Below are positions 28,897 through 49,624 of a stretch of DNA of 64,000 nucleotides, piece after piece. The notes under the pieces were generated by a model. It searched no databases. It saw only the letters and a program-made list of their open reading frames with translations, and had not been told where the DNA came from. Each line of letters starts with the position of its first letter. Positions within the stretch are counted from its first letter, which is position 1. The translations under genes and the position numbers were made by a program. Where the stretch lies: assembly GCF_002087085.1 (NCBI RefSeq), contig NZ_MWQY01000012.1:1-64000 (forward strand), in the 5' to 3' direction.

Positions 28897-29961
28897 ATGC
28901 AACAGGTGAAAGATAAAGAACGAACCAGAATAGAAAAACTGATCAGAAGCATCCCCAAAACTGAGATCCATCTCCACCTGGAAGGTCTGGTGAGTGTGGA
29001 TACATTATGGTATTTGATCAATCATAACAAACTTGAATTTGATGGGATTAATACCCGTCAGGACCTGGAACGACAGTTCAATTTCAATAATCTGGACGAG
29101 TTCATCTGGTTTTTTATCAATGTTCTTCAGAATACCTTTAAAACCTCGGAAGATCTCAAGTGTCTGATAAGCGACGCAAAATCATATCTGTCGCGAAACA
29201 ATATTGTCTATGCAGAGATATTCTTTGCCCCGTCTAAATTTCTCCAGAACGGTCTTGATTTCGGGGAGATGATGGGAATTCTCCATGAAGGCGCTCAAAA
29301 AATAAAGTTGGAAGACAATATCGAGATCAAGTTCATCATTGATGTATCCCGAACTTATGGCGTAGAGAATGCTGAACAGAATCTTGCCCTGATCCTTGAG
29401 AATTTTAATGATTCGATAATTGGAATTGGGTTGGGAGGCTCTGAAAGCCAGGGACCCGCAGAACAGTTTGCCACAGTATTTGAAAAAGCCAGAAAAAAGG
29501 GGCTCAAGGTTGTTGCCCATGCAGGGGAAGATGTCGATGCGAGCTCTATCTGGAACAGCCTGAAGAGATTAAAGGCCCAGCGTATAGGCCACGGGATAAG
29601 TGCAAAAGACGACCCCAAACTGATTGAATACCTCAGAAAAACCTGGATTCCCCTCGAGATCTGCCCTACCAGCAACGTATTCACCAGGAAATATGTTCAA
29701 CGTCTTCAAGACCACCCGATTCGCCTGTTTTTCGACAGCGGAGTTAACGTTACTCTCAACACGGATGATCCGACACTTTTTAATATTGAACTGGTTGAGG
29801 AATACTATAACCTGTACCACTACCTGGATTTTACCCTTGAAGAGCTGTTTCAGATAATGAAGAACACCCTCTTTGCGACCTTCCTGCCTGATGAAAAAAA
29901 GGAAGCCCTGTGGGAAAAAACCGCAACTGCTATTAAACGCTCAGGATATCTGGCGCCGTAA
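28897..29961 (+). CDS. add: Adenosine deaminase
   Basis: PKTEIHLHLEG, HAGE, RIGHG, CPTSN, NTDDP. Confidence 0.9.
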   Translation: MQQVKDKERTRIEKLIRSIPKTEIHLHLEGLVSVDTLWYLINHNKLEFDGINTRQDLERQFNFNNLDEFIWFFINVLQNTFKTSEDLKCLISDAKSYLSRNNIVYAEIFFAPSKFLQNGLDFGEMMGILHEGAQKIKLEDNIEIKFIIDVSRTYGVENAEQNLALILENFNDSIIGIGLGGSESQGPAEQFATVFEKARKKGLKVVAHAGEDVDASSIWNSLKRLKAQRIGHGISAKDDPKLIEYLRKTWIPLEICPTSNVFTRKYVQRLQDHPIRLFFDSGVNVTLNTDDPTLFNIELVEEYYNLYHYLDFTLEELFQIMKNTLFATFLPDEKKEALWEKTATAIKRSGYLAP

Positions 29962-29985
29962 TCCCCCGGAAACCTCTTAACAGTA

Positions 29986-30001
29986 TGTTTCACGTGAAAC
30001 C
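29986..30001. other. parS centromere site (15/16)
   Basis: TGTTTCACGTGAAACC, about 1.6 kb from parA. Confidence 0.85.
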
Positions 30002-30035
30002 TGCATTGTAGGATTTCTTTTCCGATTGCATCAGC

Positions 30036-30390
30036 TATACAGTCCATTTCTTTTCGAACGCTAAATATCCGCGCAGAGTGCGCAGAGGTACGCGATAACA
30101 TTACCCTTTTCCCTATCCTCTGCGGCCTCAGCGTGGTTTTTCTTATTCATTCACACATACCATGAATATACAGTCCATCTCTGTTCACACCCACAACATC
30201 CGGGCAGAGTACGCAGAGAGTTTTTGAACGATATTGCTCTCTTCCAGTCTCAGCGGCCTTTGCGTGGTTTTTCTTATTCATATACACATACCATGAGCAT
30301 ACAGTCCATTTCTGTCCAAATAAACAATGTGCGCGCAGAGTACGCAGAGGTCTGCACCGAAGAGCTTTCCTTTCCTCTACAGCCATTGCC
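30036..30390 (+). repeat. Tandem ~131-bp hairpin repeats, left block (3 units, last partial)
   Basis: YATACAGTCCAT at 30036, 30167, 30298; left arms at 30069, 30200, 30331. Confidence 0.9.
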
Positions 30391-30533
30391 TGCACCTCAA
30401 CTTACCAGTATCAAATATTTATAAAGCCATATCTGAGATTAACGGTAATAACAGTTTCAAATAAAGACGATGTTTATTCCAGGAATACTGCCATTCATGA
30501 AGCAATATCAGTTTGTCCTGGTTATATACAGTT

Positions 30534-30962
30534 ATGGAAGAACACAGCAAAATACCAATAATTGATCTTTCCCGCGGATACCAGCGACGGGAAGATATTT
30601 TAACGGAAAAAGTAATCGGAATAGCAATGAAGATCCACAGTTTCTTTGGGCCTGGACTTCTGGAATCATGTTACGAAGGTGCCCTCTGTTACGAACTGCT
30701 TCAGGAAGGCATCTCCTTTGAGCGTCAAAAAGAGATCTTCTGCGTATATAGAGGCGTAGATCTTGGAATAGCATACCGCGCCGACATCATTCTGGAAAAC
30801 CGGGTGGTAATTGAACTGAAAAGCTGTGAGCGGAACCATCCTGTTTTTTGCCGCCAGTTGCTGTCATATCTGAAACTGGCAAATATATCCGTTGGGCTGC
30901 TGATAAATTTTAATGTCCCGCGGTTAGTTGATGGCATTCAGAGAATCGTAAATAATTATTGA
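30534..30962 (+). CDS. GxxExxY protein (PD-(D/E)XK-like nuclease)
   Basis: GPGLLESCY, YRADIILENRVVIELKS, QLLSYL, GLLINF. Confidence 0.9.
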   Translation: MEEHSKIPIIDLSRGYQRREDILTEKVIGIAMKIHSFFGPGLLESCYEGALCYELLQEGISFERQKEIFCVYRGVDLGIAYRADIILENRVVIELKSCERNHPVFCRQLLSYLKLANISVGLLINFNVPRLVDGIQRIVNNY

Positions 30963-30974
30963 GTCAAAAGACAC

Positions 30975-31560
30975 GATTCAAACGACCAATATCCGTACAG
31001 TTACGCGGGGGTTTATACGATATTACCCTCTTCCGGTATCAGCGACCTCGGCATGGTTTCTTCATCGTTCACACATACCAGGTTCAAACAGCCTGTTTCT
31101 GTCCAATCGACAATGTCCGCGCAGAGTGCGCCGAGAACATTTTAGGGTATTGCTCTCTTATTTCCTCTGCGACATCAGCGTGGTTTTTATCGTTCACCCA
31201 TACCAGGATCAAACAGCCTGTTTCTGTCCAAACGACACTTACACCGCGTAGAGTACGCAGAGGTACGCGATGACATTAACCTTTTCCCTAGCCTCTGCGT
31301 CCTCAGCGTGGTTTCTTTATCGTTCACACATACCAGATTCAAACAACCTGTTTCTGTCCAAACGACAATGTCACCGCGTAGAGTACGCAGAGGTACGCGA
31401 TGAAATTACCCTTCTCCCTAGCCTCTGCGGCCTCAACATGGTTTTTCCTTATCGTTTCCACATACCATGGTCGAACAGGCTTTTCTGCACACACGCCCGA
31501 TATCCGCGCAGATTACCCAGAGGTGTACGCGTTGACGCGACCCTTTTCCTTCCCTCTCTT
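30975..31560 (+). repeat. Tandem ~124-132-bp hairpin repeats, right block (5 units)
   Basis: Left arms at 30993, 31117, 31244, 31374, 31504; CATACCA at 31074, 31199, 31329, 31461. Confidence 0.9.
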
Positions 31561-31568
31561 CTTCGCAT

Positions 31569-31600
31569 AAAAAAAGCCCCCCTGTGCGGGAGGCTCTTTT
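31569..31600 (-). terminator. Intrinsic terminator of gyrA
   Basis: AAAAAAAGCCCCCC-TGTGC-GGGAGGCTCTTTT just past the gyrA stop. Confidence 0.7.
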
Positions 31601-31616
31601 TGTTTCACGTGAAACA
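31601..31616. other. parS centromere site (perfect)
   Basis: TGTTTCACGTGAAACA abutting the gyrA stop codon. Confidence 0.92.
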
Positions 31617-34079
31617 TTACTCTTTTTCGGTTTCCGGCTCTTTCTCTTCTTCGTCTTCCTTAACTACCCTGGCCATTCCAATTACAACATCCGGAGGTGT
31701 AATATTGACGATTCGTACCCCAAAGGCCGCTTTTCCCATAACAGAAACATCAGTGGATCGAATTTTTATCGTGTTTCCCTGGGAAGTTATGCATACAATC
31801 TCATCTTCTTCTCTCAGAGATGATACACCCACGACTTCTCCGGTCTTCTCTGATATTTTGTAGGCGATCTGACCGCGGGTTGCCCGTCCGTGGGGATTGA
31901 AATTATCGTAATCGATACGCTTCCCATAACCGTATTCCGAAAGAAGCATCATCTTCTCTTCAGAATGAACGCATAAAACACCTGCAAGTTCATCCTCTTT
32001 CTGCAGTTTTATTCCCTGCACTCCCCGGGACGCCCTTCCCATGGCTCTCACAGCCTCTTCATGAAAGCGCAATGCCATACCATGCTTCGAGACCATCACC
32101 AGATCATTATCTCCTCCGGTGAGCTGTGCACTGATTAACCGATCCCCGGAATCCAGGTTAATAGCCCGGATACCGCGGGTACGGGCGTTGGAAAAGTCGC
32201 TGATTTTTACCTTCTTAACCACGCCCCTGCTGGTTCCCATAAACAGGTACCCTTTCTGTTCAAAATCAGTTATCGAAACAACTGCAGTGATCTCTTCGTC
32301 AGCGGATATCTGCAGCAGAGCTCGGATATTCGTTCCCCTGGCATGACGGGACCCTTCGGGTATCTCATGTACCTTAAGCCAGTAGGCTTTACCTTCACTG
32401 GTGATAAACAGGATATAATCATGGGTAGAGGCAATAAACAGGTTCTCGATAAAGTCCTCATCACGAAGATTTGCGGACATCGATCCCTTGCCGCCACGGC
32501 CCTGATTCTTGTAGGCACTAACCGGAACACGTTTTATCATGCCCCGATTCGTAGTCAAAACCACCATGTCCTCTTTCTTGATCAGGTCTTCAATATTGAT
32601 CTCTTCGACCTCGTCAATAAGGATCTCTGTTCGCCGGTCGTCCCCGAATTTCTCCGCGATTTCCAGGGTTTCCTCTTTAACAACATTCAGGATCTTTTTC
32701 GGATCAGACAGGAGATCCTTGAAATAGGCTATCTGGGCCCGTACCTCATTCAATTCGTCTATGATTTTCTGGGTTTCAAGGCTGGTCAGCTTCTGGAGGC
32801 GCATATCAAGAATCGCCTGGGCCTGCTTTTCTGAAAGCTCAAAAGCCTTCATCAGGTTTTCCCGTGCGGTATCGACATTGCGGGAAGATTTAATAATCTG
32901 GATAACCTCGTCTATATTGTCCAGAGCAATCTTCAATCCGATCAGGATATGTTCCCGCTCCTCCGCCCTGCGCAGGTCATATCTCGTTCTGCGGGTAACA
33001 ACCTCTTCCCGGTGCTCGACAAAATAGACAACAGCATCTTTCAGGGTAAGTACCTGTGGTCTTCCCTTTACAAGAGCCAGGTTGTTGACATTAAAATTCT
33101 GCTGCAGTGCCGTATGGGTAAAGAGCTGATTCAGAATGATCTTTGGAATCGCACCTTTTTTCAGTTCGATCACCATACGCATTCCGTTCCGGTCAGATTC
33201 ATCCCGCAGATCAGATATACCGTCGATCTTGCGGTCCCGGGTCAGCTCTGCGATCCGGATAAGAAGATTTGCCTTGTTAACCGCATAGGGCAGCTCGGTT
33301 ACGATTATTCGCTCCCTGCCGTTCTTCATCTGTTCAAGCACAAAGCGCGCCCGAACAACGATTTTTCCTTTCCCGGTCTTGCAGGCTTTCTTTATTCCCC
33401 GTCGGCCGAAGATGATTCCACCGGTGGGAAAATCAGGTCCCTTAATGTACTGCATCAGCTCATCGATGGTAATTTCCGGATTCTCGATGTAGGCTGCTAT
33501 CCCTTTACAGATTTCATTCAGGTTGTGAGGAGGAATATTGGTGGCCATACCCACGGCGATTCCGCTTGCTCCGTTTGCCAGCATGTAGGGAAAGGCCGCA
33601 GGCAGTACCAGCGGTTCATCCATGGAATCGTCATAGTTGGGACCAAAATCGACGGTTTCCTTCTTGATATCCCGAACCATCTCTTCTGCAACACGCTGCA
33701 ACCGAGATTCGGTGTATCGCATTGCCGCCGGGGGATCCCCGTCGATAGAACCAAAGTTGCCCTGTCCGTTGACCACCGGGTAGCGCATGGAAAAATCCTG
33801 GGCCAATCGAACCAGGGCATCATATACCGAGGCATCACCATGGGGATGAAATTTACCCAGAACATCCCCGACAATACGCGCACACTTCTTGGGCGGCCGG
33901 TCATAGCGGAGTCCCATCTCGCTCATACCGTAGAGAATCCGGCGGTGAACCGGCTTCAACCCGTCCCGTACATCAGGAAGAGCCCGGCTTACGATGACCG
34001 ACATGGCATAGTTTAAATAGGATTCCTTAATTTCATCCTCAATGGCTATGGGTATAGTTTTCCCGACAGTCTCTTCCAT
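31617..34079 (-). CDS. gyrA: DNA gyrase subunit A
   Basis: [28 protein letters not shown], GyrA-box-like QGRGGKG. Confidence 0.97.
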
Positions 34080-49150: not shown

Positions 49151-49624
49151 GGAACAAGGATGTACAGGATAAGAAGGATATGAAGAAAAACACTCGTGAA
49201 AAAGTCTATGGAAACAGATCAGATTACAGAACTAATTATTGGTGCATCCTTTGAGGTAATGAACGAGCTTGGCGCCGGTTTTCTTGAGAAAGTATATGAA
49301 AATGCGCTGCTGGCTGAATTAAAAGAACACAGTATTTTCGCTGAACAGCAGAAAGAAATCTGTGTCTGGTACAAGAATAATAGAGTTGGTACATATCTTG
49401 CCGATCTTGTGGTTGAAAACTCTGTTATTGTTGAGTTAAAGGCTGTTAACAAGCTTGATGCAGTTCACTCTGCACAGCTTATCAACTACCTGCGGGCGTC
49501 TGATTTTGAAACAGGATTGCTGATTAATTTTGGAAATCCAAGGGTTGAAATTAAACGTCTGTTTAACAAGATTTCTTCGAGAGAATAAAGGATTTTATCT
49601 TGTTATCCTCCCCATCTTTGTTTC
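49151..49624. repeat. Imperfect inverted repeats flanking the second GxxExxY gene
   Basis: Left GGAACAAGGATGTACAGGATAAGAAGGAT (49151-49179); right ATCTTGTTATCCTCCCCATCTTTGTTTC (49597-49624). Confidence 0.65.
49208..49588 (+). CDS. GxxExxY protein (PD-(D/E)XK-like nuclease)
   Basis: GAGFLEKVY, YLADLVVENSVIVELKA, QLINYL, GLLINFG; AT-richer than its neighbours. Confidence 0.9.
   Translation: METDQITELIIGASFEVMNELGAGFLEKVYENALLAELKEHSIFAEQQKEICVWYKNNRVGTYLADLVVENSVIVELKAVNKLDAVHSAQLINYLRASDFETGLLINFGNPRVEIKRLFNKISSRE

Follow-up and report, generated by a model that had tools for sequence, protein, structure and literature searches.

A GxxExxY gene of nuclease fold within a tandem hairpin array between add and gyrA: a possible counterpart of REP/RAYT systems

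The GxxExxY proteins are a very common family listed without function (the available part of PMC3424549 gives PF13366 as 'Unknown', with multiple transfers). In the stretch of DNA analysed here, a window of 64,000 nucleotides (positions 1 to 64,000 of contig NZ_MWQY01000012.1), an intact gene of this family is surrounded by eight repeat units of about 130 bp that all lie in one orientation. What, if anything, does the protein have to do with the repeats around it? A first-pass annotation of the window likened the pair to the REP repeats and their RAYT enzymes, and the resemblance is the starting point of what follows.

The eight units, three before the gene and five after it, were all found where the first-pass annotation had placed them, each left arm beginning at the first coordinate given for its unit in Table 1. 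The periods are 131 and 131 to the left of the gene and 124, 127, 130 and 130 to its right, and TRF, run independently, calls the downstream part of the array at 31042-31487 (period 130, 3.5 copies, 79% matches). A whole unit comprises a 20-nt left arm, a loop, a right arm and a linker of ~60 nt, and five of the eight units are whole, with units 3, 4 and 8 partial. Ungapped complementarity between the arms of units 1 to 8 is 16, 14, 12, 6, 13, 16, 15 and 7 of 20, so the inverted repeat of about 16/20 ascribed to intact units describes units 1, 6 and, nearly, 7. That the units next to the gene are the most degenerate is right as far as units 3 and 4 are concerned; the terminal unit 8 is just as degenerate, because its right arm is missing. 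The loops, described earlier as semi-variable and of about 28 nt, are indeed 27-28 nt long but are diverged copies of one sequence, those of units 1, 6 and 7 being homologous at 89-93%, and comparison with the rest of the genome gave nothing past chance matches of 13-17 nt. Since the loops are homologous and have no genomic target, the array is a tandem amplification rather than a spacer array. A CRISPR or guide-RNA array, which would have unique spacers, is ruled out.

Table 1. Features of the add-gyrA interval, in positions of the 64,000-nucleotide window
Feature	Position	Strand	Remarks
add, adenosine deaminase gene, left neighbour	28897..29961	+	TIGR01430 262 bits against a cut-off of 216; syntenic in five genus relatives
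parS-like palindrome, left border	29986..30001	.	parA/parB-like ORFs (by appearance) 1.6-3 kb leftward
Unit 1 hairpin	30069..30136	+	Left arm 30069-30088, 28-nt loop, right arm 30117-30136, then linker; 16/20
Unit 2 hairpin	30200..30267	+	14/20 complementary
Unit 3	30331..30393	+	Left arm intact, right arm decayed (13/20 to consensus), linker gone
5' region of the GxxExxY gene	30495..30533	+	Kept in sister species G002 (local alignment)
GxxExxY gene, 142 aa	30534..30962	+	PD-(D/E)XK fold (predicted)
Unit 4	30993..31056	+	Left arm decayed, with a 1-nt gap; right arm 31037-31056
Unit 5 hairpin	31117..31183	+	13/20 complementary
Unit 6 hairpin	31244..31311	+	16/20 complementary
Unit 7 hairpin	31374..31441	+	15/20 complementary; 90% identity with unit 6
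Unit 8	31504..31553	+	Left arm and loop only, without right arm; ends before terminator
Intrinsic-terminator-like hairpin behind gyrA	31569..31600	-	Kept in relatives
parS-like palindrome, right border	31601..31616	.	Second of two such sites in the genome
gyrA-like gene, right neighbour, convergent with add	31617..34079	-	Name from sequence appearance and the first-pass annotation

The protein belongs to the family to which it was first assigned, scoring far above the cut-offs of both TIGR04256 (E 1.8e-37, 128 bits against 35) and PF13366 (E 1.6e-35, 122 against 22). ATG 30534 is the probable start codon of the gene, in agreement with its orthologue in the sister species. Across 72 aligned homologues, the GxxExxY motif (G41-E44-Y47) is invariant, as are the remaining residues of the set E44, D84, E94 and K96, with Q108 and Y112 nearly so. 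A search of PDB sequences with the protein gave no match. The structural work rests on an alignment-based model (pLDDT 90.8; prediction from the single sequence reached pLDDT 46 only), which has a PD-(D/E)XK fold. The predicted fold and the presence of the catalytic D and E-x-K residues point to membership of the PD-(D/E)XK nucleases. Foldseek returned Cas4 SSO0001 as the top match (E 1e-3), and VIA-align matched several restriction-like nucleases at Z 7.7-8.2 (rmsd 3-4 Å over 94-119 residues); such matches to a model establish the fold and not the function. The core fold, the D...ExK motif and what we take to be a QxxxY-like motif are all shared with the Cas4/RecB-family and Hjc-like nucleases, which differ in that the invariant columns of the GxxExxY alignment contain no Fe-S cysteine set and the gene has no CRISPR context. 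For these nucleases (PDB 4ic1, 4r5q, 1gef) the Z scores of 6-8 likewise speak of fold only. No evidential weight was given to the lack of HUH folds in the fold lists, and a homodimer prediction score of 0.00 was counted neither way. The stretch directly before the gene, 30495-30533, is a possible promoter of a leaderless message, judging by its conservation in the sister species; no sigma-70 consensus was called in it. A 14-nt word at 30443-30456 recurs at the start region of GxxExxY genes of other clades in two relatives (L106 in G001, L107 in G005) and has two exact sites in the whole genome; it is a possible promoter element.

Five relatives of the same genus (G001-G005) were compared at the add-gyrA site. 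An orthologue occupies the identical site in the sister species G002, two of the six genus genomes thus having the gene there. The two proteins are identical at 118 of 142 residues, the first 18 being unconstrained, and over the core pN is 0.059 and pS 0.80 (synonymous change is saturated), against 0.080 and 0.78 for add. Among 50,697 phage records there was no match, and among 72,556 plasmid records there were 8. These comparisons show the gene to be static at its site and under purifying selection; together with the lack of any empty add-gyrA site among the strains and relatives, they run counter to the suggestion that the gene is mobile at present. G004 carries near-identical units at the site and has 15 arm matches, and the search for a gene of this clade in it came up empty, but a 100-N gap covers the expected place of the gene and for that reason G004 is not counted as an empty site. 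G003 has a different arm word and no GxxExxY gene at this site, and G001 and G005 have neither the gene nor this array, with no match to the arm pattern. The repeats of G002 are homologous to those of the array, with the left arm mostly lost. A right arm lies 26 nt past the stop codon, the canonical position, and is preceded by sequence resembling the 3' half of the loop, so that the gene was probably once inside a loop.

Whilst the gene has stayed in place, the array has not. Four of 24 listed sequencing runs were examined, three DNA-like (X1, X5 and X8) and one of RNA (X17). All three DNA-like runs cover the gene. X5 and X1 step back 259 nt upstream of it, equivalent to two units more. A further 154 nt are skipped in X1, X5 skips 263 nt downstream and X8 skips 128 nt. 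The runs consist of contigs in which repeats may be misassembled, but the extra units do carry differences of their own. Between strains, then, whole units of the array are gained and lost around a fixed gene, as the suspicion of copy-number variation had anticipated, and what the locus adds is the contrast of a conserved gene that stays put with an array that moves. With its head-to-tail inverted-repeat units and a length that differs between strains, the array is BIME-2-like. The RNA run (a single run, again of contigs) covers add and gyrA and not 29969-31666, which says nothing on whether the array is silent.

Across the genome, the arm motif of the array matches 72 times, in 16 clusters, where a third-order Markov control predicts ~3. 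Ten of these clusters hold at least two arms, and nine of the ten are without a GxxExxY gene: no gene or remnant was seen within 1.5 kb of the nine, and a profile search at ten other arm sites turned up no decayed GxxExxY gene (best E 4.6). The arms are therefore a dispersed family, and an array needs no adjacent gene. One gene-less tandem array, at about 136900-137750 of contig C12, has about six units with a ~151-bp period; its arm word is that of the add-gyrA array and its loop and linker are different. The genome also contains ten GxxExxY matches. The nine others adjoin or sit inside inverted periodic arms built on at least five other words (CAGGAT-, CACRGAA-, CACTGAT/CGCAGAT- and CACGAC-like among them), two of the nine being on contigs too short for their arms to be judged. 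One is in the window itself: at 49223-49561, a gene of another clade lies inside a hairpin with CAGGAT-type arms, ahead of a metF-like ORF. The matching site is occupied in all five genus relatives, and the counterpart in G004 has a TAG stop.

Does the association extend beyond this genome? The close homologues used here are the best 80 of at least 552 confirmed homologues, from which 79 genes were extracted. Arms of the CRCNGAG type lie within 300 bp of 63 of these 79 genes, in many phyla, compared with eight of 53 genes of this genome's phylum that were gathered by family only. Periodic arms of any kind occur in 75 of 97 near flanks and in eight of 97 flanks at 1.1-1.4 kb, bearing out the enrichment that had been predicted around GxxExxY genes. 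Of 72 homologues, 34 have a left arm before the gene and a right arm after it, both within 200 bp (15 of the 72 have neither by the strict pattern), and these show the anatomy of what we take to be the ancestral form, a cassette of ~460 bp that runs left arm, GxxExxY gene, right arm. Only one other locus among the 72 has as many as eight strict arms, so the long array is the rarer form. Each cassette arm is an array of 8-10-nt words, the two arms being inverted relative to each other. Partner arms share 22.8 of 32 positions, against 15.5 across cassettes (39 loci), and have a sharp outer edge; an arm's own partner is strictly its best match in only 13 of the 39. The mean longest direct repeat flanking 38 cassettes is 1.3 nt, against 1.1 nt for mismatched pairs, giving no sign of target-site duplication with cassette ends placed automatically, some of them out of register.

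Arm type also follows protein clade, as had been proposed. The statistics overstate the association, since arm types were set by eye on these flanks, the 79 genes were picked by likeness to the query and kin are non-independent. In a tree built from 132 proteins, of which 102 carry an arm-type label and the 30 unlabelled ones are excluded from the count, the label changes 17 times, against a mean of 30.4 and a minimum of 26 in 500 shuffles. All 71 genes labelled CRCNGAG, that of the window included, fall in one clade of 90 tips (support 0.74), with none among the other 42 tips. The search of relatives, likewise suggested at the outset, covered 121 genomes of the phylum, of which we call arm-rich those with at least ten arm matches above a reversed-pattern control. 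Arm-rich genomes number 15 of 27 with the GxxExxY family over the cut-off and one of 94 without it. The contrast recurs at closer range, with 317 arms against 0-3 in ten others within one family (f35), and 12 and 37 against 2 and 0 within one genus (g43). A gene of the cognate clade was seen in ten of the 16 arm-rich genomes and was not among the genes checked in the other six (G040, G087, G106, G107, G112 and G139), the arm matches of G139 being mostly background. Taken as a whole, the family has a patchy distribution over the phyla.

These features invite comparison with REP, REPIN and BIME-2 repeats and the RAYT enzymes. The available parts of the literature describe rayt genes between inverted REPs, with BIME-2 on both sides of the E. 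coli rayt (PMC2817692), co-evolution of REP and RAYT and length differences between strains (PMC2817692), tandem REPINs, there noted without a mechanism (PMC3337134), and a RAYT that is inherited vertically at a single site and rarely found on plasmids (bioRxiv 10.1101/2021.07.10.451892). Each has a likeness here: a small gene between inverted cognate repeats or surrounded by hairpin units in tandem, repeats that co-evolve with the protein, repeat abundance that tracks gene presence (with exceptions, and among non-independent kin), a gene vertical at one site and rare on plasmids, and an array whose length depends on the strain. The differences are equally clear. RAYT is an HUH/tyrosine Y1 transposase, whereas the protein here is a PF13366 member with a PD-(D/E)XK model; REP units are short palindromes with a GTAG-type tag, whereas the arms here are purine-rich periodic words of 8-10 nt. 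Identity with RAYT is ruled out by enzyme type and by the non-palindromic repeat unit. Also unlike RAYT, the whole GxxExxY gene sits in the hairpin loop in many homologues, several clades, each with its own word, share one genome, and the gene in the window evolves as slowly as its neighbours, RAYTs being faster according to the available part of the reports. Insertion sequences likewise carry a gene between terminal inverted repeats and have gene-less MITE derivatives with the same ends. The GxxExxY cassettes resemble them in having matched inverted ends and gene-less derivatives that share those ends, and differ in showing no target-site duplication and in encoding a nuclease-fold protein of 120-140 aa without a transposase domain. 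On its sequence features, with neither such a duplication nor a strand-transfer domain, the system is not a conventional transposase.

We put the chance at about even that the locus is an analogue of REP/BIME and RAYT in which an unrelated nuclease nicks its cognate arms and so turns over the units. The partnership of gene and repeats, as first proposed, is supported by all the genomic comparisons suggested with it; the gene-less arrays of the same arm in this genome weigh against the nicking. On the nicking reading, a gene-plus-hairpin system of wide occurrence would have settled at this chromosomal site, with arm pairs that lack the gene constituting a dispersed hairpin population. The homology of the units and the gain and loss of whole units between strains show that one hairpin with its neighbouring DNA was amplified head to tail into the BIME-2-like array around the gene. 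The protein would bind the words of its cognate arm and nick the hairpin or cruciform once extruded; in repairing the nicks, the host would duplicate, delete and occasionally disperse units, and such turnover would sustain the arm population in genomes that have the gene.

Unit-step changes in copy number are, however, also expected from slippage or unequal recombination without a nuclease, and a less probable but substantial explanation builds on this: the arms may be the passive termini of a once-mobile cassette, its gene domesticated for a host job (DNA repair or defence, for example) and its array growing and shrinking through slippage in replication or unequal recombination, without the protein acting on it. 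Decay has struck the arms closest to the gene, a counterpoint to the nuclease reading, even though the gene is as conserved as add, and in the sister species the left arms are largely gone. Tandem arrays exist without a gene on C12 and elsewhere, and unit likeness is higher within the species (up to 0.87-0.90) than between it and G002 (0.35-0.60). The add-gyrA interval carries CAGGAT-type right arms in G003 (L014) and, in G005, a GGTGGTTGAGC-like repeat together with several parS-like sites (L015; the interval of G001 is L016), and these unrelated repeats make it look like a repeat-tolerant hotspot. What passive ends leave unexplained is that arm abundance tracks gene presence genome-wide and that cassette arms keep matching each other and track protein clade.

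An improbable reading moves the system to RNA, the arms pairing in a transcript to form a long stem around the ORF (compare ORF-bearing intervening sequences) or ~130-nt RNAs, with the protein cutting the RNA or being controlled by it. A G-T/G-U pair that is invariant across all eight aligned units favours folding of the + strand, though it fits single-stranded DNA equally well; right arms finish in a U-rich run, and 29 of 58 homologous genes are co-oriented with both neighbours. Folding exceeds that of dinucleotide shuffles in two of the eight units (unit 1, z -4.2; unit 6, z -2.8, with parameters for single-stranded DNA), whereas the other six fold no better than shuffles with the same parameters (z -1.6 to +0.8), and compensatory change in the stem is nearly absent (one of 14 pairs). 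Rfam gave only sub-threshold, terminator-like matches on the array and none in seven related loci, and unit number and linker length vary between strains and species. With homologous loops that lack a genomic target, weak folding and no Rfam family at threshold, the small-RNA partner offered as an alternative in the first-pass annotation is not supported. In a comparison with the RNA arrays of type III toxin-antitoxin systems, there was again no Rfam match, and units occur before the gene as well as after it.

Two sites that we take to be parS-like from the ParB/parS consensus, the only ones in the 4.2-Mb assembly at no more than one mismatch, bound the interval, in what looks like the origin region, with parA/B-, gyrB- and dnaA-like ORFs by appearance. 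It is nonetheless very improbable that the array serves that region (in parS spacing, gyrase or ParB loading, or add-gyrA termination) with the gene a bystander, for all that it lies exactly between the two sites and that gyrase binds BIME-2 arrays (available part of PMC2817692): G001, G003 and G005 retain parS-like sites and the terminator with other such repeats or none, and in other phyla the arms accompany GxxExxY genes whose surroundings are unrelated.

In the literature searched, in which subscription journals are mostly missing and supplements are not covered, no description of the GxxExxY-hairpin pairing was found; the available part of bioRxiv 2021.01.26.428298 makes incidental mention only. 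The pairing is apparently an undescribed variant of the repeat-plus-enzyme theme. If GxxExxY proteins do act on their cognate hairpins, REP/RAYT would not be unique and a second enzyme class would maintain repeat populations, in phyla without described REPs, with a bearing on the origin and persistence of bacterial repeat arrays. A more doubtful extension of the preferred nicking model is that GxxExxY proteins are sequence-specific hairpin nucleases running a second, independently evolved class of repeat replicator in many phyla, each clade reading its own periodic word; nicking of an empty hairpin would both multiply the hairpin and allow copying of the gene into the loop via the arms, a form of homing without transposase. 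The locus offers a test case, since the enzyme is conserved, the 20-bp arm is defined, non-cognate words in the same genome can act as controls and strains differ by whole units, and a nuclease-fold family of 140 aa with clade-specific DNA words could serve as a tool.

Several further arrangements were seen. In two GxxExxY clades of the genus, the 60-110 nt before the gene include a hairpin leader, GTCAAG...CTTGAC, that is conserved and lies ahead of a strong ribosome-binding site, separate from the periodic arms (L003, L004, L005, L008, L009, L112, L113, L115, L118, L119, L121, L122, L124, L126, L129, L131 and L153); it had no Rfam match in the four loci tried and is a candidate structured leader or element end. 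One-sided arm arrays, with every arm on one strand, no partner arm and a position mostly directly after a stop codon, occur in this genome at C8 41300-48700, C65 82200-93900, C4 103650-104100 and C22 1100-1300, their orientation relative to local GC skew being mixed. At C75 150725-154072 (L002), a GxxExxY gene is accompanied by 137-bp tandem hairpin units with the CACRGAA word, in surroundings that look like a type I restriction-modification operon. Hybrid ends, in which a CGCAGAG-type arm is fused to a CAGGAT-type arm, are found at C3 141270-141400 of this genome and in the sister species (L179, G002:C1:1191300-1196300), where five such repeats lie between short ORFs.
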